Source of the DNA: a virus
Lineage: Duplodnaviria > Caudoviricetes
IMG/VR virus record: IMGVR_UViG_3300009678_000068
Coordinates: 1-52,944 of that record
DNA: 52,944 nt
Direction: 5' to 3' (one strand)
Shown piece after piece: positions 592 to 32,015 of the stretch (position 1 is its first letter; every line of letters begins with the position of its first letter). A program made the translations under genes and the position numbers. The notes under the pieces are model-generated. The model did not search any database and was not told the DNA's origin. It saw only the letters and a program-made list of their open reading frames with translations.

Positions 592-2057
592 GGCGTACCT
601 CCTTCAAGGGCTTCGAGACGCAGAATCACGTCCTGAAGTGCCCCCACCACCCACGGAATCACTTTACTGTTGTCCACTTGCTGCGGGCGTACCGTACCAT
701 CGTCGTTCACGGCGTCCGGCTCACCCGTCACCGCGTCAGGAATCACCTGCTGCAGCTCGTGCGCCAGGAAACCGACGCCCAGCTCGTCGTTCGCGTTCCA
801 GCGAAACGCCACTGGCCGCAGCGCCCGCACACGTTCTAGCGCGCCGGCGAGCGTGGCGATGGCGTGCTTCAAGCGCTGATCTGAGCTGGTGTTGTACGTC
901 GTCGCTGTGGCAGTTGTGTGTATGGACCCCACAACCGTATTGGCAACATTCGCAAAGGTCACCGGGCCGAGCGGTCCCGTATCGTTCCCTGAGTGTTTGA
1001 ATTTGATGCCCCCAAACGTATCGCGAGCCACGTCAATGGAGAGCCGAAAGTTGGATTCTGGCGTGTTATATCCTGCGCCAAGCCCCACTGGCCCCGCAAA
1101 ATAATTCGGCGCGGTGCCATTGGCGTAGATGTTAAAGCGATTCGTCCCTGCGGCGATGTCACTACGCACACCGACAGCTTGCAGCAGTGTGGCTGACTGA
1201 GGTGCCACATAGAGCCCGTAAAAGGATGCCGTCGCCAACCCAGCCCCGGTTGTGGCTTCAACACGTACACCAGTGAGACCGACAGCGCCCGCAGGTGCCA
1301 CAGGCCATATCCGCGCACTGTGATACGAGTTCGCCGCATCACTCGCCACCACACTGCCCTGCACATCCAGCACGCCCGTTGGCGCATGCCCGCCAATGCT
1401 GATCGCGCCATCCGTAATCGCCACCGCACCCGCGTTCTGTGTGGCGAGCGTGCCCAGCCCCAGCGTCGTGCGCTGCGCCGCCGCGTCGGCCCCGGCCACC
1501 AGCGTGCGCCCCGCCGCCGTGAACGTCGCCAGCGCCGCGGTGCCGAGTCCGGTAAAGTACGGCAGCGTATCTGCGGCACTGACCAGGACAGCGAGCGCCG
1601 CGAGTTCAGGATCTTGCGCCACAAACTCCAGGGCCAGTTCTGCCGCGTTGACTTTGACAAACCGTGTCGCCATACCGGTGTAGGCATCAGGGGTATCGAC
1701 AAGTCCTAAGAAGGTCCCCACGCCGCCATTGGCGAGCGCCTGTTCTTCGCCCCAGACCATGACCGTCAGATTCGCATCCCCCGCATACGCCCTGAGCACG
1801 TCCGTATTGGCGAGGCATACGCCCATCGTAAAGGGCACCATCGTATTGGCCGCAATCGAGACGTCGTAGGCAAAATACTGGCCCATGGCATCTGCAGCGC
1901 CTGCTGGCGCATGGCTCAAGCGAAAGGTCGTGGCGGTCGCTCCACGGTTACACACGACAATCGTGGAGACCGCCACCTCCGCGGTCGCGGTGTAGATGGT
2001 CGTGAGCGTCGTGGCGCCAAGCGCCACGCCACAGAGTTGTTTGAGGCCTGCTGGCAT
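588..2057 (-). CDS. Tail fibre protein with C-terminal peptidase S74 intramolecular chaperone
   Basis: TSSDQRLK...RALRPVAFRWN...GFLAHELQQVIPDAV motif and terminal coiled coil. Confidence 0.85.
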   Translation of the reverse strand: MPAGLKQLCGVALGATTLTTIYTATAEVAVSTIVVCNRGATATTFRLSHAPAGAADAMGQYFAYDVSIAANTMVPFTMGVCLANTDVLRAYAGDANLTVMVWGEEQALANGGVGTFLGLVDTPDAYTGMATRFVKVNAAELALEFVAQDPELAALAVLVSAADTLPYFTGLGTAALATFTAAGRTLVAGADAAAQRTTLGLGTLATQNAGAVAITDGAISIGGHAPTGVLDVQGSVVASDAANSYHSARIWPVAPAGAVGLTGVRVEATTGAGLATASFYGLYVAPQSATLLQAVGVRSDIAAGTNRFNIYANGTAPNYFAGPVGLGAGYNTPESNFRLSIDVARDTFGGIKFKHSGNDTGPLGPVTFANVANTVVGSIHTTATATTYNTSSDQRLKHAIATLAGALERVRALRPVAFRWNANDELGVGFLAHELQQVIPDAVTGEPDAVNDDGTVRPQQVDNSKVIPWVVGALQDVILRLEALEGGTP

Positions 2058-2059
2058 CG

Positions 2060-3451
2060 TTAGCTACCCATGTGCATGAAAACGCGTTTGCGCGAACGAT
2101 CCGGGACAGTGATGGTCGTGCCACCACCGCCACTCCCGGTGGCAGAGAGGACACCGCCGGCCAGGGCCAGGCCAGCCCCCACGGTAATCTCGTGCGGTGG
2201 ACCCGCGACGCCATTCGAGCGTCCGAGCACGCGCTGGTTGGCCATGTCCTGCATCTTCGCAAACGTGACAGACCCATTGTCGATCTGTGCTGTCCCGACC
2301 GTATCGAGCAGCGCCAGGTCTTGCAGCCCGAGCTGCGTCCGCATCTCGCCCACGTTTGCCGCGCCCACAAACGTACGTGCCGCAGCGGTAAACGCCGTCG
2401 TCGCCACGGTGTCTGGGCCCGTGAAGTACGGCAGCGTATTGGCACTGGTGGTCAACGCCGCGAGCGCGGCCAGGAGGGCATCGTACTGCTGCACGTTTAC
2501 CCCTGGTACGAGTCCTAGCGCGCTCTGGGCGCCTGGGACCGTCGTGGCCCCGGTGCCGCCCTGCGTGATCGGCACCGGGACACTCAGCGCGGGACCATAC
2601 TCCAGCGCTGTCATGGCGGCATTCACGCGCAACATCGCGCCTGCCGCCCCCGCATAGGTATCCGGCGTATCGAGGAGCTGCAACCAGGTGGTCGCGCCGC
2701 CACCGCCCCCGCCGACGATAAATTCCAAGCCGTTCGCGGTCGCGTTGACCGCCACGACTTTGCCTTCCTGACCGGTGTACGTATTGGGCGTATCAAGCAA
2801 GGAAAGGAAGTTGTCGATTCCCCCGGTGCCAGGCACAAACTCAATCCCCGATTCATCGCCCTTGATGCGTAAGATCCTGTTCGCCTGCCCGACATACGTA
2901 TCCGGCGTATCGAACAACGCCAGAACCGTCTGCGGCAGCACCGCCCACTGCAGCGCCGTCTCGTCCGGCGTCACCTGTAAGACCTTGAGCGCCTGGCCCG
3001 CAAACGAATCAGGGACGTCGTCCAGTCCCAGAATCGACGTGACCAGATCGACATACTCCAGCGCGCTCATACTCGTACCAACGCGCACGCCTTTCCCGGC
3101 CTGTCCGGTATACGCCCCTGGACCGTCCACCAGCGTCACAAACGAGGCCGCTGGGGCAGGGCGCAGCGCGATCCCGGCAATCGCCAGCCCCTGCGCCTCG
3201 ATCTGCGCTTTCACGACTGCGAGCTGCTCCACCGTGGCGGCGTTCGACGGCGTCGTACTGGTGCCCACGTTGTTGATGCCGTTCTGTCCCAGATCGACGC
3301 CATTATAAAATTTGACCGGCCCGCTGAAACCATATCTATTTGATAAGTGTTGCGTTATTCTATCGAGGGTCCGGTTGATATCGTGAGACAAGCTCATGGC
3401 ATCGCTGGTAGGCAAGATCCTCAAGGGGTCAATACTGTTCGCGACAGGCAT
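2060..3451 (-). CDS. Tail fibre-like protein with internal DTPxTYxGQ repeats
   Basis: Five to six repeats of F/WxxLxDTPxxYxGQxxKxxxV...LEF, and an LPYFTG module shared with 588..2057. Confidence 0.75.
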   Translation of the reverse strand: MPVANSIDPLRILPTSDAMSLSHDINRTLDRITQHLSNRYGFSGPVKFYNGVDLGQNGINNVGTSTTPSNAATVEQLAVVKAQIEAQGLAIAGIALRPAPAASFVTLVDGPGAYTGQAGKGVRVGTSMSALEYVDLVTSILGLDDVPDSFAGQALKVLQVTPDETALQWAVLPQTVLALFDTPDTYVGQANRILRIKGDESGIEFVPGTGGIDNFLSLLDTPNTYTGQEGKVVAVNATANGLEFIVGGGGGGATTWLQLLDTPDTYAGAAGAMLRVNAAMTALEYGPALSVPVPITQGGTGATTVPGAQSALGLVPGVNVQQYDALLAALAALTTSANTLPYFTGPDTVATTAFTAAARTFVGAANVGEMRTQLGLQDLALLDTVGTAQIDNGSVTFAKMQDMANQRVLGRSNGVAGPPHEITVGAGLALAGGVLSATGSGGGGTTITVPDRSRKRVFMHMGS

Positions 3452-4232: not shown

Positions 4233-4805
4233 CTAGCGCACGATCACCTCGACGCGACGATTCTTCGGTTCTGGCCGCTCTGGCGCATCGATGACCGGCT
4301 GGCGCTCGCCGCGTCCGACTGTGCGCACAAACGTAGCGGTGAGCCCGGCGTGCACCAGGAGCGCACGCACCGCCTCAGCCCTGCTCAGCGAGAGCGCATC
4401 ATTCGCCGCGTCCGTGCCGACCTGATCCGTGTGGCCGGTGATCTCCACCTCCACCACACCGCGCCGCTGCATTTCCGCCAGCAGGGCCCCGAGGGTCACC
4501 AGGCCAGCCGCATCGAGGGCCACTTTGCCCGTCGCAAAGTGAAACACAAAGTGTGCAGATGGCTCCGGCGCACTCGCAATCACCGCCCCGTAGCGCGCCT
4601 GAATCAGTTCAGGCGGCAACAGGCCCAGAGCAATCTGCCCATGCGCACCGATCACCGCCGTGCTGTCAGGGAGCGTTAACACCGCCACACCCTTCTGGGT
4701 CGTCACGGTCAACTCCTCGCCTGGCTCTGCGCCGAGCAGCACAATGCGCTCGCGTGGCCCCGCGCAGGCACTCAGCAGCAGCCAGAGGAGCGCGAGACGC
4801 CTCAC
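4233..4805 (-). CDS. OmpA-family lipoprotein
   Basis: GTG start overlapping the upstream stop; lipobox LLLSA-C; OmpA-C motifs GHTD..G....N..LS..RA and NRRVEV. Confidence 0.9.
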   Translation of the reverse strand: MRRLALLWLLLSACAGPRERIVLLGAEPGEELTVTTQKGVAVLTLPDSTAVIGAHGQIALGLLPPELIQARYGAVIASAPEPSAHFVFHFATGKVALDAAGLVTLGALLAEMQRRGVVEVEITGHTDQVGTDAANDALSLSRAEAVRALLVHAGLTATFVRTVGRGERQPVIDAPERPEPKNRRVEVIVR

Positions 4806-5191
4806 GGCTTTTTCACCTTTTCGACCGGCAGAGACACCCACCTGTAGATGGGTTCCCACGCGCCGACGTGATACCGCAGCAGCGTATCGCCCGTGCTCTG
4901 GCACAGCGTCACGCGCACAACAATGTTATGCGGCCCATCCACTTCGTAGCTACTCCCCTGCTGCAGACACGCCAAATTACGCTGCCAGAGACGATCCTGT
5001 TCCTGTGCGAGCTGCAATTCCGAGCGTGCCACGCCCAGGCGTATCGCCTTCAACTCATGCCACACCGTAGGAATACTCCCCCCAATGGACAGCGCCAGCG
5101 TCGGATACAGGATCAAATACTGCCAGATTTTCGTGGGCGGTGTCGGCGCGGGCATTGCCGCTGACACCGGCGTCGTCACGCTTTCTGCCAT
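4802..5191 (-). CDS. Single-TM membrane protein with short coiled coil
   Basis: Hydrophobic WQYLILYPTLALSIGGSI, heptad ELQLAQEQ, two Cys. Confidence 0.6.
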   Translation of the reverse strand: MAESVTTPVSAAMPAPTPPTKIWQYLILYPTLALSIGGSIPTVWHELKAIRLGVARSELQLAQEQDRLWQRNLACLQQGSSYEVDGPHNIVVRVTLCQSTGDTLLRYHVGAWEPIYRWVSLPVEKVKKP

Positions 5192-12114: not shown

Positions 12115-12125
12115 GCCACTACTCC

Positions 12126-12155
12126 TAGCATAGGTTACAAAACACTAGGTACAAT
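12126..12155 (+). promoter_or_regulatory. Promoter, shared motif copy 1 (upstream of HNH gene)
   Basis: TAGCAT-aggttacaaaacactagg-TACAAT; near-identical to the motif before terL. Confidence 0.65.
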
Positions 12156-12273
12156 TTAGGTATACTTACGCTCGGCACAGATAGCGCTGGCCTCATGAAC
12201 TAGCGCGACAAGCCTGTCCGCACAGGTTTCTGTGCTACACACTATGCGGAAGCAACTCATGCGGAGGTTGCAC

Positions 12274-13003
12274 ATGCCACGCAAACCACTCACGCCTGAA
12301 CAACGTACCAAAGCCGCTGCCGCAACCGCAGCATGGCAAAAAGCCAATCCTGAAAGACATCGAGCCAATCAAAAACGCTGGGAAGGACTCCATCGCGAAC
12401 AAGAACGTGAACGTTCACGCATGCGCGCAGCAGCAGATCCAGAAAAAGCCCGCACCGCCTCACAATTTCCTCCGGGAAGCCCAACCTCTCGGAGGTTGGG
12501 AGGGATAGGAGGTTGGCCGCAGGCCAATTCCTTGTTGGCGTGTCGCCAATTCCCTCTGCGCAGAGCGCACATTCCCTGGCATAGGTCACAATATACGAGA
12601 TACACTTTCCCTGAGTGCTGTAGACACTCTCCTTGGAGAGCAACGGTTTCAGGGCACTCGGTTCCTTGACAAGTTGATCTAGGTGGTTGCGGGAACTCAA
12701 TCGTTTTGCCCGCGTAAAAGATCAAAACGTTTCCTGAACGTTGGAACGCGCTGGGTGTAATGCCCAGCACTAGGGGTGCTAAAGATGCTCTCCGTAAGGA
12801 GAGACGGTGTAAGCCATCCTGATTGATACGCCCCGATCTTGGTCGGGAGTGTAAAGCCCAAGGATTTATCCTTGGGTGTGCTTACTGCACTAGAAAACAA
12901 TGGACCCAATACCATCTGGAACGTTCTTGCTGCCTGTCGTATCTGCAACGCCAAAAAAGGCACTAGGCATGCCCCTGGCCCTGTACAGCCCTTGCTCTTA
13001 TGA
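12274..13003 (+). pseudogene. Free-standing HNH endonuclease disrupted by an IS200/IS605-like element
   Basis: GGAGG-ATG N-terminal part MPRKPLT...DPEKARTAS; C-terminal part ALENNGPNTIWNVLAACRICNAKKG...QPLLL*; the central CxxC/DH segment is missing. Confidence 0.75.
12464..12885 (+). mobile_element. Non-autonomous IS200/IS605-like element with omegaRNA-like RNA
   Basis: Follows TCAC; subterminal hairpins CCCAACCTC-GAGGTTGGG and CCCAAGGAT-ATCCTTGGG; ends GTGCTTAC; GNRA loops; homologous to 52237..52660. Confidence 0.7.
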
Positions 13004-14413
13004 GGGCAACATGCCTATGATCCAGCGCCATTCTGGTATAACTTGAACTGACCAGGCACCATACCCTGACCACTTCAACTGCTTCGTCTCAAAGTCTCTG
13101 CAACTGTTCATGGCGGGGCTCTTTATCCTCGCCTCCCCACTTTCGTGGGGTATCGGACTATCTCATCATCCTTAACAGGATGCCGGGCGCTCGTGGGCGG
13201 GTTATTGGGTGGCTCCTCACCGCCTAGTCTCTAGAGGTTCGCTGTACTTCCATGCCTTTCCAGCGCTTCCTACGGGATTACCCTCTGCGGCTTCCCCGTT
13301 TCACCCGGTGCACTCATCAAGATTACTCTTGCGAGGGACCAGTAGACTCGATCATTTCGTACTCTGGCTTACAGTGCTGTTATCGGCGGGGTTCTTTATC
13401 CCCGCCTTCTGCATGTCACCATGCAGCTCCGACTATCTCATCACCTCTATAGGTGTCGGGCGCTCGTGGGTGGCTTATTGCTGGGCTGCTCACCACCTAG
13501 TCTGTAGACCTTCGTGTGTACTCTCATGCCATTCCACACGCTTGGTACGGGATTGCCTCAGTGAGGGTTTCCCCGTTTCACCCGATTTATACTGGACTAG
13601 CTAGTTATTATTAATCCAGTCCCACCAGATACAGGACTCTTCGCGCAGGTTCTTGTTGACCAGGTACGACGCGTTGACGTTGGTCAAGCGGTTCCAGATA
13701 ATCAACTCCGCCGTGTCCTGCTCGGGGTTCACGTTGCCGAACGCGGTATCGAGGCCGCGAGGCGTGCGGAGAATCTCCAGAGCGCGCGGCTCATTTTCGA
13801 TAGACGTCCACAGCTCATCGCCCACGATATCGGTCAGGTCCCCGCGGTCGTTCCTGAACCGGCGCATGAGAATCCGCGCCGCGCGGTACGTGGTCGGGCC
13901 AAACGCTCCTACCAGGTAATTACTGAAGCCGCTCGCCACCGACACCCCAGGCGTGCGCGTCTGGTGCGCCGCAGAGATCAACGGCACAGGCTCCGTGGAC
14001 TCCCAGAACGTCGTGTTGATCGACGTGGCGCTGTTAAAGATCGTCGCCGCGTGCGTCTGCCGCGTGATCAACCCGGAACGGACGATTTTGCGAAACCTAT
14101 CGGCACGTTTTAATATGCCTGTTAGGTCCGATTCGTACATCCTTCTAGTTATATTCATACCCTGACTAAATTCTCTATGAGTGGCCACACTGGCATATTG
14201 CTCATAGAACCTATCGTAGTCAATAGAGCCAGTAAAGGCGCCCCACTGCTGCGCCTCACCAACGCTCGAAATCCTTTCCGTGGCGCGGTCAGAGTCGCGC
14301 ACGGTGCACAGACGCGGGATGTAATCGCGCTGATCGGATAGTTCTTTGTCAATTACCTCACGATATCTCTCATCAATAAGGGTAGCAAATGCGTTGAAAT
14401 CCATTACCGGCAT
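12998..14413 (-). CDS. Major capsid protein, spliced (exons 14413-13614, 13371-13351, 13100-12998; 307 aa)
   Basis: Mu gpT-like/HK97-fold pattern. Splicing gives ...WWDWI-KPEYEMI-RDFETKQLKWSGYGAWS...EWRWIIG, the expected C-terminus. Joined length is 924 nt, in frame. Confidence 0.85.
13101..13350 (-). ncRNA. Group I intron 2 in capsid gene (250 nt, no ORF)
   Basis: 5' exon ends in U (GAU pairs with GUC); P10 CAGAGA/UCU(A)CUG; P7 GACUA/UAGUC; terminal G. Confidence 0.85.
13372..13613 (-). ncRNA. Group I intron 1 in capsid gene (242 nt, no ORF)
   Basis: P1: exon ACUGGAU pairs with IGS GUCCAGU including the U-G wobble; P7 GACUA/UAGUC; terminal G. Confidence 0.88.
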
Positions 14414-14613
14414 AAATCATTTCCTTTCAATGACTTATACAGTTAATTATCTGTTATTTTTAGAGTCCTTTCTATTTTCAATGGCTCTAGGCCATTCCAT
14501 AGGATATAATTTACTACATGGCTGGGTAGCGGGTCGCTCCCGCTCGCAAGCCGTGGGGGCCTACATCCTCTGTGGGCCCAGCCACCCCTTAACCTATGTA
14601 GGAGGTTGCCCCG

Positions 14614-14847
14614 ATGGCCCTTATCCAACTCGAGACGTATGACGCCCTTCAGGCCGCTGGCACCCCCGAGCCCCAGGCACGCGCTGCAGCAGAGGCGGCA
14701 GCTGATATTGAGCTGCGTCATACCGTCATGGCCGAGCGCTTGAACGGGATCGACAGCAAGCTCACGATCATTTTGTGGGTAACAGGCATCGGCTTTTCTG
14801 CGATGCTCGCGGCATTCTGGCAAATTTTCCTGCGCCTGCCGCGTTAA
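14614..14847 (+). CDS. DUF1640/CCDC90-like small coiled-coil + TM protein (moron)
   Basis: GGAGG RBS; YDALQAAG.PE.QARAAAEA, C-terminal TM; TATAAT upstream at about 14505. Confidence 0.7.
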   Translation: MALIQLETYDALQAAGTPEPQARAAAEAAADIELRHTVMAERLNGIDSKLTIILWVTGIGFSAMLAAFWQIFLRLPR

Positions 14848-14860
14848 GGAGTCTCCCCCC

Positions 14861-15229
14861 ATGGACACACCCGATCCAACCTCGTCCCCGCTCGCACTGC
14901 TGCAGATGGCCCAGGCCACCCATGAACAGGCACTCCGGCTGCACCGTGACAGTCTCGACCGTCACGACGCCATCCTGAGTAGTCATCAGACCCAGATGCA
15001 CCTGCTGGTGGACATGCAGGCCTCGCAGACACGCACCCAGCAGTCGTTGCGTGATCTGCACACGCGCCTTACCGACAACCAGATTGCCTGTGCGGCAACA
15101 CTGGCGCAGCATGGCTCACGACTCAGCGCCGTGGAAGCCGCCACGCTCCAGCTGGCCGACGCCATAGGCCGGATCACCAGCACGCTTGAAGCCATCAAAG
15201 ACCTGCTTGGACGCTCGAACGGGCACTAA
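14861..15229 (+). CDS. Coiled-coil hypothetical protein (moron)
   Basis: AAGGAG RBS; heptad repeats. Confidence 0.65.
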   Translation: MDTPDPTSSPLALLQMAQATHEQALRLHRDSLDRHDAILSSHQTQMHLLVDMQASQTRTQQSLRDLHTRLTDNQIACAATLAQHGSRLSAVEAATLQLADAIGRITSTLEAIKDLLGRSNGH

Positions 15230-15248
15230 CCTCGGAAGGACGCCCCCT

Positions 15249-15383
15249 ATGCTGCTCATCCCCCTGGCGTTCCTCGTGATTGTCGCCCTGGTCTGGGTCG
15301 AAGTCCACTGCCCAGGCCTGCCCAGGGCTCTCTTGATCGTCCTCGTCCTGTGGTGGCTCTACACCACCATTGCGTACCCCTGA
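15249..15383 (+). CDS. Small 2-TM protein
   Basis: AAGGA RBS; MLLIPLAFLVIVALVW... Confidence 0.45.
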   Translation: MLLIPLAFLVIVALVWVEVHCPGLPRALLIVLVLWWLYTTIAYP

Positions 15384-15439: not shown

Positions 15440-16228
15440 CTACGTCGCGCTGAGCCAGTGGTCTGCAAACAGACAGTCCACCCACGCCGTATCGGTGGCT
15501 TCATCGATCACCACGTTCATCACCTTGAGCGCCGCGCCGGTGCCGGTGGCAATCAGGCCGTTGGCTTCGGTGAGATCCGTCGTGAGCTGCACCGTGGCGC
15601 CCGCTTTCGAGTACGGCACGCGGATAAACGTATCGCCCACCGCAATCGGATTGACAAACGCCACTTCGACGCGCTCATCAATCGGCGGGCCGGTGGTGTG
15701 CGTCACGAGCCGGCGTACCTGGCCCCCGTTCGCGCCAGTCCTGCCCTTGATGAGTCCGCCAGCCATCGATACCGCGCCGAGCCCTACGTCGGTCACAATC
15801 AGCTTCGTGGCGTCTGCCGTCGAGTTCACCAGGACGTTGGCTGGCGTCGTCGGAGACACCGGAAGCCCGGCCCCGCTCGTCGCCCCGCCAGCGATACGAA
15901 ACCGACAAATTTGCAGCGGGTGATTGACAATTCTGGCCACCGCACCCATCAGCTCATTGCCGCCCAGGAGCCCAAAGGGACTGCTCAGCCCCGCCCCCAT
16001 GGCTGGCGCGGCATTGTACTGCACGGTGTCACTGTAGAGGCCGATCGCGTCCACTGCAGCCGTCGCCGCGGCGTTCACGACCTCACCAGCGGAGTCGACT
16101 GCCGTGGAGCGCAGCGCCACCGCGCCGGCCAGACAGTTCGCGTCAAGCAGGTAATCGCTGAAAAAATCCCCACTCTGTAGCCCGAGAATCTTCAGGACAT
16201 AGGCCACGTCTGCTCCTTTCGTTGACAC
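15440..16228 (-). CDS. Probable capsid decoration/cement protein
   Basis: Ala/Gly/Thr-rich, upstream of MCP; the true start may be slightly downstream (AAGGAG then GTG). Confidence 0.55.
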   Translation of the reverse strand: MSTKGADVAYVLKILGLQSGDFFSDYLLDANCLAGAVALRSTAVDSAGEVVNAAATAAVDAIGLYSDTVQYNAAPAMGAGLSSPFGLLGGNELMGAVARIVNHPLQICRFRIAGGATSGAGLPVSPTTPANVLVNSTADATKLIVTDVGLGAVSMAGGLIKGRTGANGGQVRRLVTHTTGPPIDERVEVAFVNPIAVGDTFIRVPYSKAGATVQLTTDLTEANGLIATGTGAALKVMNVVIDEATDTAWVDCLFADHWLSAT

Positions 16229-22126: not shown

Positions 22127-24700
22127 TCAGGCTCCTGTCCCATGCACCACCCGGAGACGGGAATCACGGTGCATCTGCGAGACTTTGCGGCGCCATTTTT
22201 CCTGCGTCGAGAGGGCCAGCTCGCGCCGGGTGAGCATGGCGCAGCCGTACGCAAAGGCTTCCCCGACGTCACTGTTGCCGGTGAGAAAGACCAGGCCATT
22301 GCGACGCGCAATCCAGGCGCCAGTCCCCGTGGTCGGACACCAGACCATTGGCACCGTCGTTTCTGTGCGTGCGCACTTGTCAATCGCCGCATAGTCCCCA
22401 CGTCTGATGAGCGTAATAAACCACTGGTCATTCCACAGAAGCCCTTGCTCCCTACGGACTTTTTCCTTACTCGCTTTGTGCACATGGCTGCGAATGCCAG
22501 CCAGGCTCGCCATATGCTGGTACGCATCGGCTTCGGCCTCAGACGAGGTCGACAGCACAAACGCACGCGGACTCTTCCACATCTGCAAGCGATCCGAAAA
22601 ATCCGTCAACACTGGCAAGATGGTGGCCCAGGCCCCATCCCCTTTTTCCGCTTCATAGAGAAAGAGGCGCATCTGTCCAGCGCTCATCTGGGCAATAAAC
22701 GCCCCTGAAGGATATTTGTTCGGCATCCATTGCCGGATAAGCAAAGCGAGTTCGCGATGCAGATACCACGTAGCCACAGGCGCCCTGGTTTTTCCGTAGG
22801 GCTCCCATCCTTTGGTCCGATGCATCCCGGTAGGAAACCACGCAGCTAACTCATCGAGTTGTCTGACATACTCGGCATTGCGCCCGGTCGATTGACCGAT
22901 AACAACACTGCCGTTAGGACGATAGTGTCCTTCCGTGGCTACCCACGCACACAGACGGATAAACTCATCAGAAAACTCGCGGTCTTTCCCATGACGCAAT
23001 GTCGACGCACGGACAGCGGCACATGCAACATAGTGGGCGGTATTGAGGTCTGCGGCTTCGACAAATTCAGGGTCACCATAGTTCGTCCATTTTTTCCCAT
23101 TCGGCCGTCTATGCACGTGTTTATGGCGCACGACACAACGATGCGTCGGCGTCACCATCATATCCAGGCTCTGGCTCTGCCAGTGGATGACCGGCGTCTC
23201 TTCGTCATACACCTGCACGTATTTCAGCACATCGGGCATGATCTTGTGGCGAAGCGCGTCATAGCCATAGACCGCCTCGCCCTCACGAAGCTGCCCCACG
23301 CGCTTCCAGCCATCATACGTCAGCATTTCCGTCTGGGAATCGACACATGCCTGGCTTTTCACCCAGCGTTCCTTGATGATACGACCCGTCGTGTCTCGAC
23401 CATAATGCCAACCACCTTGCAGCGCCTGAATCAGCACCTTGCTATGGCGCCGATCGATGCGAATCCAGGGCCGGCCGTTGTGGTAGCGATTCAGGCAGTC
23501 ATGCATCGGCAACCGGCGATCTTCGATGGAGACCGGGCCTGGCACCCACTGCTCGCCGCCCATCAGATCGATAATCACGCGCGCCGCGGACATGGCGGAA
23601 TCGCTCTGGTCTTCGTTCGTGGTATTCGGGTCTCCGGTATGGATAAACGTCACCTCATCCGGGACGTAGAGCGCCAACCAGGGCCGGATGGTCTTTTCAA
23701 TGAGCTGTTTGACGCCCATGTTGACACCCTGGAACGCCGCAATAATATCACAAAATCCGCCCGGCCGAACACGCCAGAGGATGCAGGCCGGCGAGTGTTT
23801 GGGATCCCAACTCGTAATCAGGCGCTCGCCCGCCTGCACCGGGGGGACCGCATCCACCAGGTGTTCTGGTCGGAAGTTCGAGGCCACCGGCTCGCCAATT
23901 TTGACGTTGCCGACTTTGCCCTCGACCAGGCGGGCCACCAGGTCCGCACGCCCCAGGGCCAGGAGCATATCGCGGTTGCGCTCGCGGTAGCCGGGGGTTT
24001 TGAGGTCTAAATGGTGATTTTCGCCCTTGGGAATTAAAAACACTTCGGACTGCTGGCGTATGCGCTCGATCGCGTCCTGGCGCTCACTATCCCAATCGGT
24101 CGGTTCGGCACCGGGAAGATTCCAGGTCTGCGCCGTCCAGTCCGAGCCATCCGGGGGATTTTCGGCAATGATCACCAGGGGCTGGGCGCTTTTGCGCATG
24201 GACGTGACGGCGATCGCGAGGGCGTCCCCAGGAATCCCGCCTGAGATATCTGCAGCAGGCGCCGGCTCCTCCATCCACACCCCGTCGCACTCAAACGACT
24301 GGAATTTCGAGTAGTCACGCGGGTTGTCGCAGCCAAAGAAGAAAAATTCGACCACCGGGGCCTGGTCCGGGTGCAAGCGGATCTGACAATACTCTGGCTC
24401 CAGATCCTTGCCGACCCAAAAGCTCGCCAGACCCTCCGGGAACCATTCTTTGATCGTCGCCGCGGTGGTGAGCCCGAGATTGCGTCTCGTATCACGCAGG
24501 GCAGCGAACTTGAGCGGCCAGCGCGCAGGATCTTGTTTCTGCGCGTGCGTCACGATGGTCATGAGCGATCCACTCGATTTGCCTTCGCCCCTCCCTGACA
24601 CCAGCAGTCGGAAAATAGCCTGCGAACGCATACACCGCGCAATAGTAGGCGTTGGGGTATAAATCTTGACCTGGCCAGGAACATCGACGAGATTATCCAT
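22127..24700 (-). CDS. terL: Terminase large subunit with intein
   Basis: Walker A SGRGEGKS, Walker B GVWMEE, coupling motif ENPP, nuclease WDP, GDP and SDVGEA. Confidence 0.92.
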   Translation of the reverse strand: MDNLVDVPGQVKIYTPTPTIARCMRSQAIFRLLVSGRGEGKSSGSLMTIVTHAQKQDPARWPLKFAALRDTRRNLGLTTAATIKEWFPEGLASFWVGKDLEPEYCQIRLHPDQAPVVEFFFFGCDNPRDYSKFQSFECDGVWMEEPAPAADISGGIPGDALAIAVTSMRKSAQPLVIIAENPPDGSDWTAQTWNLPGAEPTDWDSERQDAIERIRQQSEVFLIPKGENHHLDLKTPGYRERNRDMLLALGRADLVARLVEGKVGNVKIGEPVASNFRPEHLVDAVPPVQAGERLITSWDPKHSPACILWRVRPGGFCDIIAAFQGVNMGVKQLIEKTIRPWLALYVPDEVTFIHTGDPNTTNEDQSDSAMSAARVIIDLMGGEQWVPGPVSIEDRRLPMHDCLNRYHNGRPWIRIDRRHSKVLIQALQGGWHYGRDTTGRIIKERWVKSQACVDSQTEMLTYDGWKRVGQLREGEAVYGYDALRHKIMPDVLKYVQVYDEETPVIHWQSQSLDMMVTPTHRCVVRHKHVHRRPNGKKWTNYGDPEFVEAADLNTAHYVACAAVRASTLRHGKDREFSDEFIRLCAWVATEGHYRPNGSVVIGQSTGRNAEYVRQLDELAAWFPTGMHRTKGWEPYGKTRAPVATWYLHRELALLIRQWMPNKYPSGAFIAQMSAGQMRLFLYEAEKGDGAWATILPVLTDFSDRLQMWKSPRAFVLSTSSEAEADAYQHMASLAGIRSHVHKASKEKVRREQGLLWNDQWFITLIRRGDYAAIDKCARTETTVPMVWCPTTGTGAWIARRNGLVFLTGNSDVGEAFAYGCAMLTRRELALSTQEKWRRKVSQMHRDSRLRVVHGTGA
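22274..23347 (-). mobile_element. Intein (358 aa) with LAGLIDADG-like endonuclease region
   Basis: N-terminus CVDSQTEMLTYDGWK, block B VTPTH, WVATEG, C-terminus WIARRNG...TGN followed by Ser. Confidence 0.92.
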
Positions 24701-27896: not shown

Positions 27897-28135
27897 CTGC
27901 ACCATGACGGGAAGCGGGCCTTCTGCTCCCTCGACCGTTGCTTCTGGCTCAGCCACCAGCCTTCTCCTTCGCTGCCTGGCCCGCATCGTGGAGGCGGATC
28001 ACCAGCACCACGCTACACCAGGCGCGCTGCGTCTCCGGGAACAACATCGACCACGACGGATGCCACCAGGGATCGCGCACGGCACAGTACGCCTCATAGG
28101 CCATACGCGCCACAGCTTCAATGTCGCCCTCTGAC

Positions 28136-28561
28136 TCAGCCACGGCGTCGCTCCTTGCCCTGATACGCCCGGCGTTGCTCCAGGCGCTCCCCACGTCCCT
28201 TGTAGATATACTGCGAGTTGAGGCGATAGGTCGCCGGGATTTCCCCCTGCTTGACGCGGAGCACAATCCCTAACTGATCCAGGTCCCGCAACAGCCGTGA
28301 CACCGCTTGTGGCGCCATCCCCAGCGCGCCCCCAACTTCGGCTTGCCGGATCACCAGGTCCTGCGCAAACGTCACACAGCTCATCATATACGCCAGCACC
28401 CGCCAGTGCGCCCCCTTGAGCCGCCGATCACACGCCATCTGCCGCAGATGCCCCTGAAACACCCAGACCCATTCCTCCGCACGACGTGGCTTGCGTCGCC
28501 CGGATACCTGCGCTATAGTGCCAGTACTTCCTTCACCCGCCAGCGCCGTAGGCTTATTCAT
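28136..28561 (-). CDS. Winged-HTH protein (RepL/MarR-like)
   Basis: RQAEVGGALGMAPQAVSRLLRDL..GIV...YRLNSQYIYKG. Confidence 0.7.
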   Translation of the reverse strand: MNKPTALAGEGSTGTIAQVSGRRKPRRAEEWVWVFQGHLRQMACDRRLKGAHWRVLAYMMSCVTFAQDLVIRQAEVGGALGMAPQAVSRLLRDLDQLGIVLRVKQGEIPATYRLNSQYIYKGRGERLEQRRAYQGKERRRG

Positions 28562-29066
28562 CCATTTCCTTCTCTCATACTCCATTATGTCTCGTATCAT
28601 CATACACGTTAACTTTTTGCCAGACAAGCCCGCGTCAATTCTCACGCAAACACACGTCTCCTTCTTTCTCTTGCTTCATACGACCCCGTACCCCCATGCC
28701 CCGCCCCACAACAGCCTCCTGCGCCCGCGTAGACCCCCCACCCCCGCGAGGGACACCCACCGTCCCAGAGGGAAGCCTCGCGCGTAAGCCCTCCCCCGTT
28801 CCAGGACACACCCGCGTAAGCCCTCACCCGCTATATGTAGGCACGGAGTGCGCGCTGAGACGGGGCTGAGGCGCTTGCCCTCGAACCTCCCAGCCGTGGA
28901 GCCCCTATGGGGTACAAATTCCTGGTACGCGTTCCTGCGCACATGCGCAGGAACGCCAGCGAAGCGAAGCCAGATACATGCCACAAAAAGAGAAGCTTCC
29001 TAAGCATGAACCATAGCACTCAACGTGCTCAACTCCGCACGTAGAGTGCGTACACTTTTGGTTACA

Positions 29067-29094
29067 TGTTCTGATAATAGGTATTATGTTAACT
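29067..29094 (+). other. dif-like XerC/XerD recombination site
   Basis: TGTTCTGATAA-TAGGTA-TTATGTTAACT, an 11-6-11 layout with the XerD arm one mismatch from TTATGTTAAAT. Confidence 0.85.
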
Positions 29095-29738
29095 ACGTGA
29101 GAGTAAGGACAAGTCCAATAAGATAGAGTAATAACTCTGTAACTACTTGCATATCAATACATAATGGATAGTGTAGACTTGAGAGTTTGTAACCTTATTG
29201 GGCAAGACATAGGGAAAAAGTCATAAGGGGAACAATAGATTGTACCCTGTTATCAAAGTGATATGATGCGGGTTGCATATTCTAAGTGCTTGAAAACACG
29301 TTCCTACGCGCTTTTATAGTGCACATGCGTGCATGATACTTTTAGGAAACTATCTTACCAGGGAAAGAGAGCGCATGCATGTGATGCTTTGCGGAAATAT
29401 TTTCTTAAAGGAATACTTGAAGCCAAAAACTAATTTTGTCACGTCTCGAGCTACTAGCCTGTGCTCCTGTGCTTTCCTACACGTGTGCGCGCGTCATAAA
29501 AAGCCTTGAGTGTCATCGCCAAAAGCAAACATGCCCAGGCCGCACAAAATACTGTGGCGAGTCTCTGCAGCGTGTGGAACACTTATATATGCAATGTAGT
29601 GTAGTAAAGATTTAGGACACTATAGCCGATAAGGACTTGTGAGGATTCCACGCTAGAACAATGGGAAAACATGGCGCCATGTCTTCTCCACATGACGCCA
29701 TGGCCAGAACACTGCCTACCACATGAGGATACTAGGCA

Positions 29739-31106
29739 ATGCAAACAGATCTTAGCACAATAACGCAAGGCACACTGAAAACCTCGCCGGCATGGGCCCA
29801 AGCATTTAGAGATTATGCAAGTAGCAAGGGAAACATGGGCAATGTCGCTCTCATTATCTCTGGTGAAAAAGATATTAGTCGTATGCCTATTCTCTGGCGC
29901 GATTTTCTGAAAAGCGCGCCAGCTGTCGCACTACTCGAAAATCCTCCGACACCAGACACACCTTGGCATGAGGCAGAGGCAGAGGCAGAGGCAGAGGGCA
30001 ATGAGAGCTATGCTGAGCCTGTTCCCGTGCCTGTTCCCGCGCCTGAGCCTGAGCCTGAGCCTATTCCTACGCCTATTCCTACGCCTACGGTATCAAGCAA
30101 TCCTCTCATTGCGCTTATTGCCGATGGATTGCGCGAAATGGGCTATGTGCCAGAAAACACACTCAGCACGGAACATGTACGCACAATCGCAGCAGAAACA
30201 GCGCAAAACATGGTAGCCAGTGCTATAGAGCGTCTCGAAACAGAAAGCGGGCTAGCGAGTCATGCGCCTATCATGCGCATCCAGATAAACGACAGGCCAG
30301 TAAAAGAGGTAAGCGGCCGGCTACCTAAGTTTTTTCCTCAGCTGCTCAGGCTAGCACAGTGCAATGTGCCGGCGTTTCTCGTCGGGCCGGCCGGATGTGG
30401 AAAGACCACAGCTGCAGAAAAGCTTGCCGAGGTATTAGACGTATCTTTTACACGTGTTTCGCTTAGTGCTGGTGTGGACGAGGGAATTTTGCAAGGCTGG
30501 CTCCTGCCTGTAGGCGATAGCGGCAAATTTTCCTACGTGCCAGCACCGATGGTAAACGCCTATGAAAATGGTGGTGTAGTGCTGTTAGATGAACTAGATA
30601 GCGCTGACGCAAATATGCTCATTATTTTGAGTGCAGTACTGGACAATAGCAGCTGGCATATCCCATTGCGCTATGAACAACCGGCCGTAGTGAAACATCC
30701 TAAAGCCTATTTTATGGCAGCTGCTAATACGTTCGGCCATGGTGCAAACATGCAATTTGTAGGCGCTAATCAGTTAGATGAGCGTACGCTGTCACGCTTA
30801 CGGCAAGGGCAGATCTTGTGTGACTACGATGCAGAACTAGAGCAAGAAACATTTGACGCTGGCATCGTGCAATACGGCCATATGTTGCGCGAACGCTGCA
30901 GAGCAATCCCACAATTCAAGCGAGATATTTCTACCAGGGATATAGCCTTAAATAGCAACAAGGTGTCGACGTGCGATCATAACGGCCGGCCGCTCTATAC
31001 GGTAGAACAGGCATGGTTTAATCATTTTTCTGACTGGAAAGCAGATGAGTTGAGCAAGGTTCATGTGGCGTTGGATAGCGATATGCTTACAGCTGGCCTG
31101 GAATAG
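29739..31106 (+). CDS. MoxR/CbbQ/CobS-type AAA+ ATPase
   Basis: GPAGCGKT, LLDELD, AAANTFG.G, GANQLD. Confidence 0.88.
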   Translation: MQTDLSTITQGTLKTSPAWAQAFRDYASSKGNMGNVALIISGEKDISRMPILWRDFLKSAPAVALLENPPTPDTPWHEAEAEAEAEGNESYAEPVPVPVPAPEPEPEPIPTPIPTPTVSSNPLIALIADGLREMGYVPENTLSTEHVRTIAAETAQNMVASAIERLETESGLASHAPIMRIQINDRPVKEVSGRLPKFFPQLLRLAQCNVPAFLVGPAGCGKTTAAEKLAEVLDVSFTRVSLSAGVDEGILQGWLLPVGDSGKFSYVPAPMVNAYENGGVVLLDELDSADANMLIILSAVLDNSSWHIPLRYEQPAVVKHPKAYFMAAANTFGHGANMQFVGANQLDERTLSRLRQGQILCDYDAELEQETFDAGIVQYGHMLRERCRAIPQFKRDISTRDIALNSNKVSTCDHNGRPLYTVEQAWFNHFSDWKADELSKVHVALDSDMLTAGLE

Positions 31107-31118
31107 GGAGGACACCAC

Positions 31119-32015
31119 ATGATAGCGCAACCATGTACCTATTACGGGAGTCTAGCCCATGCGCTAGATACGATTGACGCATCAAGAGATGGCGATAGCT
31201 GGCTCAACTATAGAAAAAAAGATCCTTCGTATAAAAACCATGCAATCGACAATACACCTAATGAGAACTGGGCAGAGTCACTCTCAGAATTTGTGGGGTA
31301 CTGTCGGAATTTTGACGCGCCGTATTTGCAGGAAAGAATAGAGCGAGTAGCGCAATTATCAGAACAATTAGATGGCGAAGACTTAGAAGCGTCTAGCATC
31401 AAGCGCCAGCAGATCTGGACGCGTCAAGGATCTCGGATCAATCCGCATAGGGTGCTCCGCGGACAGCTCGCTACTGCCTGGCGCAGGACTGTCCGCGTGC
31501 AACGTAGTGGTGTCCATGGGCGCATTTTGATAGTGCTCCCTCTAGCCTACTCACACTATGTCACGCCAGAGCAAATAGCCTGGAATACGGCCGCAACCCT
31601 GGCGCTTGTTGCTCTTGCGAAACAGGCCGGCCGTATCGTAACGCTCTATGGTGTCGACCATACGCTAAACGCCTATGATCAATTCCAGACCGGCACAATA
31701 TGCATACCATTGCTGACGTCCGATAGTGTCTGGAGTAGTCACGATACGATTTTAACGACATCCGCTGCATTCTGTAGGCGTATCTGTTTTCGCCTCTTTG
31801 AAATAGGCCAACCTATCTATGGGCCCATTAGCCCATGCTACGGTTTCCCTGCCGATAAAAGCACGCTACGCGTATGGATTGACAATACCCTGGCACCGCA
31901 TGCCGGCATACCTGCTGCAGCCTGCTATGTGGGCCCAGTTCAAGAAGATAGCATTGTCTCGTTAGAGACTGCGCGCGCTTGGCTAGAAAGCCAGCTGGCT
32001 CAACTCAATAGCTAA
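31119..32015 (+). CDS. vWA/CobT-like partner of the AAA ATPase
   Basis: Immediately downstream; G...N..R.L.G...AW and ..F.RR..F motifs; canonical MIDAS not seen. Confidence 0.5.
   Translation: MIAQPCTYYGSLAHALDTIDASRDGDSWLNYRKKDPSYKNHAIDNTPNENWAESLSEFVGYCRNFDAPYLQERIERVAQLSEQLDGEDLEASSIKRQQIWTRQGSRINPHRVLRGQLATAWRRTVRVQRSGVHGRILIVLPLAYSHYVTPEQIAWNTAATLALVALAKQAGRIVTLYGVDHTLNAYDQFQTGTICIPLLTSDSVWSSHDTILTTSAAFCRRICFRLFEIGQPIYGPISPCYGFPADKSTLRVWIDNTLAPHAGIPAAACYVGPVQEDSIVSLETARAWLESQLAQLNS

Follow-up and report, generated by a model that had tools for sequence, protein, structure and literature searches.

Landthaler and Shub (PNAS, 1999) reportedly found three group I introns and exon skipping in the gene orf142 of the Staphylococcus phage Twort. 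Here we analyze a comparable locus, a putative major capsid gene in which two group I introns without an open reading frame (ORF) flank a micro-exon of 21 nucleotides (nt). The gene lies in the virus record IMGVR_UViG_3300009678_000068 (Duplodnaviria; Caudoviricetes), a fragment of an uncultured tailed phage. The window is the whole stretch of DNA that was analyzed, that is, the entire linear IMG/VR record of 52,944 nt, which is ~45% complete according to CheckV. Twort orf142 encodes a tail tube protein and its exon skipping has been shown, as mentioned in PMC11878797. The two loci share several related ORF-less group I introns in one phage virion gene and the possible skipping of an internal exon. 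They differ in that our gene encodes the major capsid protein of an uncultured high-GC phage, the internal exon has a length of 21 nt, and the intron set varies over seven sites among near-identical genomes.

Four other groups of described introns resemble this locus in part. The group I introns treated in PMC11878797 include two that flank a small internal exon, but their average length is 802 nt and their host genes, as far as that paper names them, are DNA-metabolism and terminase genes, compared with 242 and 250 nt in a capsid gene here; its authors ask why only nucleotide-metabolism, DNA polymerase, and terminase genes are colonized. Cluster J mycobacteriophages are closer in host gene: the capsid-gene intron of LittleE contains an endonuclease gene in antisense orientation, and a related 265-bp ORF-less intron lies in a tail gene of BAKA and Optimus (PMC3706429). 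Cluster J thus shares with our locus the capsid-gene intron, the antisense endonuclease in one copy, an ORF-less relative of ~265 nt, free-standing HNH genes nearby, and variable presence among close relatives, whereas the cluster J account describes one intron per gene, no micro-exon, and no multi-site swarm in one gene. In phage T4, ORF-less or defunct introns are mobilized by a neighboring endonuclease in trans or collaborative homing (mobE, I-TevIII; PMC2790892), which resembles our locus in the free-standing HNH gene beside intron-bearing DNA and in the co-converted exon flanks, and differs in that the HNH role here is putative and the HNH gene of the window has decayed. In the Jug (jumbo gut) phages, essential genes are split by small (~206 nt) group I introns, on average 18.5 per genome, with splicing backed by metatranscriptome reads for 37 of 76 (PMC12880540); they are likewise metagenome-derived and rich in small ORF-less introns, but they are gut Bacteroides/Phocaeicola phages with genomes of 360-402 kb, and the genes named in that account are terL, nrdD, and a DNA polymerase gene.

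Outside phages, related group I introns at several sites of ribosomal DNA (rDNA) have been taken as circumstantial evidence for reverse splicing (PMC3984707, PMC1299323), and one review adds that direct evidence for reverse splicing to new sites is still lacking (PMC3984707). The rDNA introns share with our locus the presence of related introns at different sites of one gene and sites that match the intron guide; the differences are that the host here is a protein-coding phage gene and that the exons are near-identical between haplotypes. Every ingredient of the present locus is therefore already in print, including a small exon between phage group I introns, exon skipping, and capsid-gene introns, and the initial annotation of this DNA overstated how unusual the arrangement is. 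What is notable is its density and variability, with seven sites in 924 nt, and an apparent preference for capsid genes. Full-text literature searches, which were limited and are no proof of absence, returned no description of this swarm or of a group I lineage specialized in capsid genes.

We believe, with a probability of about 85%, that the capsid gene of the window carries two ORF-less group I introns of the same lineage, which arrived separately from a swarm occupying seven sites of this gene, and that the swarm spreads at the DNA level with HNH endonucleases as its probable drivers.

The interrupted capsid gene and its product

On the minus strand of the window, the ORF 14413-13601 encodes 270 amino acids (aa) and ends in WDWINNN, followed by a stop codon that lies within intron 1. 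When both introns (13613-13372 and 13350-13101) are taken out by script, the three exons join into an ORF of 307 aa and a stop codon. The ORF end and the intron and exon coordinates given in the initial annotation all hold. Exon 1 (13614-14413, minus strand) comprises codons 1-266 plus 2 nt, has TGGAT at its 3′ end, and aligns throughout with the homologous proteins P0002 and P0003. The micro-exon (13351-13371, minus strand) provides the last base of an Ile codon, the codons for K-P-E-Y-E-M, and the first 2 nt of the Ile codon that follows. Exon 3 (12998-13100, minus strand), which was located by tblastn of P0002 and P0003, provides the last base of that Ile codon, 33 codons, and the stop codon. 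Both 5′ exons finish in T, and both introns finish in G.

With the 270-aa product as query, a homolog search yielded 16 proteins out of 596 candidates. Full-length homologs span ~283-309 aa. Those of 305-309 aa that were inspected are uninterrupted, are colinear with the 307-aa spliced product (P0002 is 83% identical and P0003 74%), and continue past WDWI through the residues of the micro-exon and exon 3, which answers the comparison with intronless homologs that had been proposed as a check. The micro-exon residues are uninterrupted in P0002, P0003, and P0006, and in P0004 and the related locus L004 exon 1 runs into the micro-exon without a break. Three database proteins, P0001, P0004, and P0005, are fragments whose ends lie inside an intron.

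The interrupted gene is taken to be a gpT-like major capsid gene, based on profile comparisons. Against PF10124 (Mu-like gpT), the window exon 1 product scores 15.5 bits and P0002 19.7 bits, both below the cut-off of 20.1 bits, which the homologs P0006 (23.3 bits) and P0007 (27.2 bits) pass. The window product also matches the major head protein family phrog_371 of PHROGs (E-value 3.9e-5), and a profile of 13 homologs matches solved Mu GpT-domain capsid chains of the same length (8rkc, E-value 4.9e-7; 8rkx, 8e-7). An AlphaFold2 model of P0002 built from 13 aligned homologs had a mean predicted local distance difference test score (pLDDT) of 53.8, too poor for a fold search.

Evidence that the parts beyond the introns are translated comes from comparison with the related locus L003. 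Over the 924 nt of the spliced coding sequence (CDS), the window and L003 show 93 differences, and all 308 residues are identical. Downstream of the position of intron 1 the differences are 26 of 126 nt and 0 of 42 residues, and after the position of intron 2 they are 22 of 102 nt and 0 of 34 residues. The absence of residue changes beyond the introns indicates that the parts past both introns are read in frame with exon 1, which requires the exact removal of both introns.

It could be argued instead that the interruptions stay in the RNA, and that the capsid protein has 270 aa while its C-terminal 37 residues are dispensable or made separately. Gene callers indeed list the 270-aa ORF as a protein (P0001), and a short ORF with its own ATG (12998..13111) spans exon 3. 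However, a start codon is lacking in the micro-exon, and in exon 3 the 22 nt changes are all synonymous and leave the protein fully conserved. In addition, the homologs of 305-309 aa continue through both segments, and both the covariance model and the covariation (see below) identify the interruptions as group I ribozymes. We regard a 270-aa capsid protein as hardly credible. Since gene callers shorten this capsid gene, annotation, clustering, and taxonomy based on capsid proteins miss or mis-size such genes.

Structure and origin of the two introns

Both interruptions match the Rfam group I model RF00028, whose gathering score is 50 bits. The match to the region of intron 1 scores 72 bits (E-value 2.2e-16, 13642-13409, minus strand), and the match to the region of intron 2 scores 51.2 bits (E-value 3.5e-10, 13363-13134, minus strand), narrowly above the cut-off. 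The Rfam scan of the 52,944-nt window with E-values up to 0.1 gave no match besides these two. The claim of two homologous ORF-less group I introns around a 21-nt exon, for which a covariance-model search had been suggested, is thus borne out by two matches above the cut-off and by the covariation described below. The two introns can be aligned over their full length, and the three long motifs said to be shared are present in both.

Intron 1 (13372-13613, minus strand, 242 nt) has no P2, and its last base is the G at 13372. Its internal guide sequence (IGS) lies at 13597-13591. According to the alignment, P3 is formed by 13585-13579 with 13462-13456 and P7 by 13502-13498 with 13435-13431, and the 3′ part contains P7.1 (13497-13469), P8 (13455-13442), P9 (13426-13409), and P9.1 (13406-13385). 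Intron 2 (13101-13350, minus strand, 250 nt) has its last base, G, at 13101 and contains a P2 hairpin (13331-13318, loop GUAA). Its IGS, GUCCC, is at 13339-13335, and its aligned elements are P3 (13308-13302 with 13189-13183), P7 (13229-13225 with 13160-13156), P7.1 (13224-13196), P8 (13182-13167), P9 (13150-13135), and P9.1 (13133-13112). Altogether, P1, P2 (intron 2 only), P3, P4, P5, P6/P6a, P7, a hairpin between P7 and P3′, P8, P9, and a post-P9 hairpin could be read from the alignment, and the minimum free energy fold of each intron alone yields P3, P4, P5, P6a, P7.1, P8, P9, and P9.1. Neither intron has room for an endonuclease ORF. The hairpin between P7 and P3′, with 5 base pairs (bp) and a 19-nt loop, is found in all ten introns of the family that were aligned, and three of its five pairs covary. 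It occupies the position where subgroup IA introns carry P7.1/P7.2; an IA-like subgroup is a tentative call. Subgroup IA is the class of most phage group I introns.

The two introns differ in how their guides pair with the upstream exon. In intron 1, the guide GUCCAGU pairs with the end of exon 1, ACUGGAU, over 7 bp, including a terminal U-G pair. In intron 2, the guide GUCCC pairs with only the GAU of the micro-exon, giving three exonic pairs (GAU/GUC) with a U-G pair possible; two intron-side pairs may lengthen this P1, and a 3-bp P10 (CAG/CUG) is possible. Of the elements listed in the initial annotation, P7, the terminal G, and P1 of intron 1 are confirmed; P1 of intron 2 has three exonic pairs, and P10 is modest in both introns. 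The GUCC of the intron 2 guide pairs with four bases at the end of exon 1 (GGAU), one more than with its own exon. Since it fits the exon 1 end better than the micro-exon end, some skipping of the micro-exon is plausible; exon 1 joined directly to exon 3 keeps the frame, giving the predicted product that lacks 7 aa. With two ribozymes around a 21-nt exon, the locus lends itself to compact tests of splice order and exon skipping. We note that a duplex of -13.8 kcal/mol between the exon 1 end and the intron 2 guide region reflects an out-of-register GGGAC/GUCCC pairing, which is not P1 and was not used.

We assessed the proposed structure, which comprises 11 helices with 55 pairs, by covariation across ten aligned family introns. 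These sequences had also served to derive it, which somewhat favors the structure, although double changes are numerous. Standard pairs occupy 96.5% of 545 cells, and both sides have changed in 30 of the 55 pairs. The covariation score is 0.518, compared with 0.173 in shuffled alignments, none of which (0 of 500) scored as high. When the partners are slid by 1-3 columns, the score drops to 0.053-0.088 and the pairing to 34-43%. The tested helices include the P3/P7 pseudoknot. P7 is 100% paired, with two of five pairs changed on both sides: GACUA/UAGUC is replaced by GCAUA/UAUGC in three of the ten introns, a double compensatory change. This P7 variant explains why Rfam misses those three introns. 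Among the introns of related loci (described below), the one at site b of L001 gives no Rfam match at E-values up to 0.01 and the one at site 0 of L002 none up to 10, and lower scores are obtained for site a of L001 (30.4 bits), site a of L003 (38.8 bits), and the endonuclease-bearing intron of L004 (21.6 bits). The introns missed or under-scored by Rfam were located by exon mapping and an nhmmer profile. Judged by this alignment, the ten family introns retain the group I core with strong covariation.

The features of intron 2 raise the question of whether only intron 1 is autonomous. Intron 2 might be crippled, or might need assistance from parts of intron 1 or from a protein of the host or phage. 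A large share of the RNA would then remain unspliced or lose the micro-exon, and the phage would be decaying or helper-dependent with little functional capsid protein. The score of 51.2 bits against a cut-off of 50, the three exonic pairs of P1, and the better fit of the guide to exon 1 all speak for this explanation, as does the neighboring HNH gene of the window, which has already decayed; the ~45% completeness of the record also means that phage viability cannot be judged. On the other side, intron 2 has kept all of its core helices, which covary with the family. L004 has the same intron 2 with the same P1 in front of an intact exon 3, and in several haplotypes whose reading frames are intact, introns at sites a and b rely on this 3-bp GAU/GUC pairing as well. 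Exon 3 itself shows 22 nt differences to L003 without an amino-acid change. A crippled or dependent intron 2 is unlikely in our judgment.

Introns 1 and 2 are 69% identical to each other (75% over the core), and each has closer relatives elsewhere. Intron 1 is 87% identical to the site-4 intron of L003 and 79% to the site-1 intron of L001, and the nearest relative of intron 2 is the site-3 intron of L003 (74%). Their modest mutual identity and these closer relatives indicate that the two introns arrived separately and did not result from a local duplication, by sequence comparison. The description of the pair as paralogs stands as to homology, with the adjustment that the two are not duplicates made in place. 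In the stretches compared by eye, intron 2 of L004 is identical to that of the window, except for a swapped P6/P6a module and an endonuclease insert, so modules have evidently been exchanged among the introns of the family.

Intron sets and spread among related haplotypes

Capsid-protein scans of viral and metagenome contigs returned seven loci (L001 to L007), in which introns were mapped with an uninterrupted homolog and junctions were inspected. Five related haplotypes are 93-100% identical over the 270 aa encoded ahead of intron 1. Introns of the family occupy seven sites of the 924-nt gene, and the intron set differs in each of the six haplotypes sampled. The sites are s0 (after codon 5), sa (within codon 13), sb (after codon 68), s1 (intron 1 of the window), s2 (intron 2 of the window), s3 (7 nt past s2, with a 255-nt intron in L003), and s4 (within codon 301). 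The window has introns at s1 and s2; L001, L005, and L006 at sa, sb, and s1; L002 at s0 alone; L003 at sa, s3, and s4; L004 at sb, where the intron is cut by the contig end, and s2; and L007 at sa and sb, after which its contig stops. No intron-free haplotype was found among those with a complete capsid gene. With these introns taken out, the window, L001, L002, and L003 each have an ORF of 307 aa. Intron 1 is missing from the DNA of L002, L003, and L004, in L004 exactly at the predicted junction, and intron 2 is missing in L001, L002, and L003. A profile built from the ten introns detects two copies in the window and no more, and in the flanks of the related loci (up to ~3 kb per side) it has no match outside the capsid gene.

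The sites share a short sequence. In the intron-bearing alleles, all seven sites follow GAT, which occurs 22 times in the 924-nt CDS; the chance that seven random positions all follow GAT is ~(22/924)^7, or ~4e-12. TGGAT occurs three times in the spliced CDS of the window, exactly at s0, s1, and s4. At s1 and s4, where the introns lack P2, each guide matches its own exon over 7 bp, and the GUCCC guide of the remaining introns can pair fully at s3 only (GGGAU), with four pairable bases at s0. In several empty alleles, the GAT is absent through synonymous changes, such as CTT ATT at sa, AGG T at sb, and AGA GAC at s3 in the window. This pattern fits guide-directed insertion, and it would also arise if only splice-competent insertions survive.

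Sequencing runs assembled in Logan bear on whether the two-intron arrangement is real. Logan assembles with 31-letter words. Contigs of two DNA runs from two studies (X1 and X2; 21,987 and 20,146 nt) cover 12900-14500 with 0 differences. In another DNA run, X3, a contig lacks intron 1 exactly at the predicted junction (joint 13370->13614). An arrangement with both introns could in principle be an assembly chimera of an intron-1-only and an intron-2-only haplotype joined through the shared micro-exon. Haplotypes with differing intron sets do share a sample, since X2 contains the window sequence together with a low-depth contig of an L003-type site-3 junction, and the micro-exon that would join them has just 21 nt. 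However, a shared stretch of this length is shorter than the assembly words, and ordinary reads would span the micro-exon and both intron ends. Two studies also give the same sequence without a difference, of which at least one run may be the source. A chimera is, in our view, very improbable.

A hint of splicing in vivo in a relative comes from RNA run X24, assembled from a sediment metatranscriptome, in which 5% of the sampled words are present. A 418-nt contig of X24 joins 13611 to 13100 through 18 other letters, which are the micro-exon as in L003. It differs from the window at 17 positions (315 of 318 nt counted) and at 15 positions (81 nt) in its two parts, and the exons of L003 with the site-3 intron removed give the same counts. 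The contig is unbroken across site 3, where the DNA of L003 carries the 255-nt intron, and its end coincides with the 5′ splice site of site 4. Other contigs of X24 span sites a and b free of introns, and one bears intron sequence of the L003 site-a type. Stretches without cover in X24 and X3 were not counted as evidence. The X24 contig suggests in vivo splicing in a relative of the window phage.

Comparison of exons between haplotypes shows how the introns may have moved. L007 and L003 differ at 0-1 positions per 42 nt over nt 1-126 and 337-722 of the CDS, and at 14 and 13 positions in the two 42-nt segments that flank site b, which is occupied by an intron in L007 and empty in L003. L004 and L003 show 0 differences over nt 337-798. 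Over nt 799-924, L004 differs from the window at 2, 3, and 8 positions in successive segments compared with 8, 12, and 9 from L003, and intron 2 is common to L004 and the window. These exon mosaics are co-conversion tracts of the type left by homing or recombination, which implies spread between haplotypes at the DNA level. For the reverse-splicing transposition raised in the initial annotation, this means that spread at the same site is a DNA-level process and that reverse splicing is a candidate for the occupation of new sites only. As a further observation, the window and L003 have diverged at the synonymous level by ~21% over the final 126 nt of the CDS (nt 799-924), compared with ~8% over nt 1-798. 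The 3′ end of the capsid gene, beside the HNH gene, looks like a gene-conversion hot spot in these alignments.

Endonuclease genes are found in two positions. The intron 2 of L004 is 834 nt long, with an extra ~580 nt in the P5 loop that contain an antisense ORF of 175 aa. This ORF matches the HNH endonuclease family phrog_8446 (E-value 2.5e-8) and phrog_7545 (E-value 1.9e-4), and in Pfam gives weak helix-turn-helix matches only. Free-standing HNH genes lie directly downstream of the capsid gene, in convergent orientation, in L003 (233 aa; 4375-5076, minus strand) and L001 (194 aa; 4423-5007, minus strand), and their intact proteins score 51.5 and 52.3 bits against PF01844, respectively. In the window, the corresponding gene is decayed (12232-13003, plus strand); it is convergent with the capsid gene, overlaps the capsid stop codon, and matches PF01844 with an E-value of 0.003 on 12839-13003. 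tblastn with the L003 and L001 proteins identifies the remnants 12274-12465 and 12854-13000, in which the frames are broken and the DH..P..GG core is replaced. The remnant sits in an insertion of ~850-890 nt (~12115-12997) that is missing in L002 and L004. The distance from the capsid stop to the next gene is ~20-50 nt in L002 and L004 and ~880 nt in the window. Their position and the exon mosaics suggest that HNH endonucleases are the probable drivers of intron movement.

We propose the following mechanism. Each transcribed intron would fold into the P3-P9 core, with its guide paired to the end of the upstream exon. Guanosine would attack after the U of the U-G pair, and the exons would be ligated after the terminal G. 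The spliced mRNA would encode the 307-aa capsid protein, and some transcripts may lose the micro-exon and with it 7 aa in frame. At an occupied site, recombination or double-strand-break repair would carry the intron as DNA from one phage genome to another, probably driven by the HNH protein encoded in the intron 2 copy of L004 and by the free-standing HNH protein encoded downstream of the capsid gene. The decay of the HNH gene in the window would be expected late in a homing cycle. For new sites, guide-directed reverse splicing and off-target endonuclease cuts are candidates. The swarm offers an unusually complete natural data set on group I intron spread, with introns with and without an endonuclease, a decayed endonuclease, co-conversion, and site-matched guides.

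Several points weigh against this interpretation. Intron 2 scores 1.2 bits above the Rfam cut-off, with an exonic P1 of 3 bp, and P10 is weak in both introns. Self-splicing of both introns and the efficiency and autonomy of intron 2 are predictions, and the tentative IA-like subgroup call is based on the hairpin between P7 and P3′. The RNA support concerns a relative, and none of it covers the haplotype of the window. The X24 sequence is an assembled contig, in which rare forms are hidden and whose library may contain DNA, and it could derive from an unsampled haplotype without introns at sites 1-3. X1, X2, or both may include the source sample of the window. Plain homologous recombination between co-infecting phages would give similar mosaics, and the probable role of the HNH proteins is deduced from position and mosaics.

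Distribution of the intron lineage

We searched for further members of the lineage with a pattern of two core motifs followed by an intron-profile check, and scanned 30 flanking ORFs from 26 loci against PHROGs. The pattern returned 28 viral contigs, all of which (28/28) match the intron profile, and 116 genome contigs, five of which match it; the other 111 give no profile match and are taken as chance matches in GC-rich DNA. A major head protein lies beside or around the introns at 10 of the 26 loci (phrog 9953 six times, 283 twice, 1357 and 1328 once each), for example at L014:2508-3173, L032:5058-5795, L037:1633-2478, L017:6638-7798, and L025:3530-4399. The phrog_9953 matches and the match in L025 start or stop part-way into the family profile, as expected of split genes. 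Other flanking ORFs encode DNA polymerase (3 loci), HNH or other homing endonucleases (6), a head scaffolding protein (1), and a head decoration protein (1), and the rest of the 30 belong to an unnamed family or have no match. These counts suggest that the intron lineage prefers capsid genes, given that the 26 loci were picked by one sequence pattern and that the gene splits are predicted. The presence of the lineage at major head genes of four further PHROG families is at odds with the host-gene picture drawn in PMC11878797.

Tandem arrays also occur. Five sister introns are found in L075, a contig of a Bacillota metagenome-assembled genome (MAG) (2043-3382, minus strand), and three in L030 (534-1337), with profile envelopes 27-73 nt apart. 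This spacing indicates that short exons between sister introns recur in the lineage. The exon upstream of the L075 array contains a LAGLIDADG_3 domain (E-value 8.3e-8). An intron match of 207 bits lies inside an apparent small membrane-protein gene of an Acidimicrobiales MAG (L151:2509-2772, 368-kb contig). Outside the intron this locus is unrelated to the window, and no host can be inferred from it. When the whole gene was compared by blastn with 50,697 phage records, the one match was 79 nt at 78% identity to a part of intron 2 (13117-13195). Its target is the crAss-like phage Kehishuvirus sp. 'tikkala' (OQ198717.1, 56709-56790), where the stretch is annotated as a hypothetical protein and may be an unannotated group I intron.

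A broader hypothesis, which we put forward tentatively and think doubtful as it stands, is that a lineage of minimal ORF-less introns (238-276 nt) specializes in the major capsid genes of unrelated phages. Its members would enter by reverse splicing at guide matches (…GAU, ideally UGGAU or GGGAU), and HNH-driven gene conversion would then spread the insertions. If this is true, the capsid gene records a whole cycle of arrival, guide adaptation, homing with co-conversion, endonuclease gain, and endonuclease decay, and differing intron sets in co-infecting phages might serve competition between phages.

A few features of the window lie outside the capsid gene. Three small ORFs (77, 122, and 65 aa) at 14614-15383 on the plus strand, resembling coiled-coil or membrane proteins, form an opposite-strand cassette in the head module, between the capsid gene and a minus-strand gene at 15440-16228; one of them has a weak match to the minor tail protein family phrog_17481 (E-value 9e-4). 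An ORF of 857 aa (22127-24700, minus strand) has a weak Terminase_3 match at residues 30-204 only and is long for a large terminase. The G+C content is 0.51-0.53 at 28001-32000, compared with ~0.62 elsewhere, and this region coincides with the switch of gene orientation from minus to plus.

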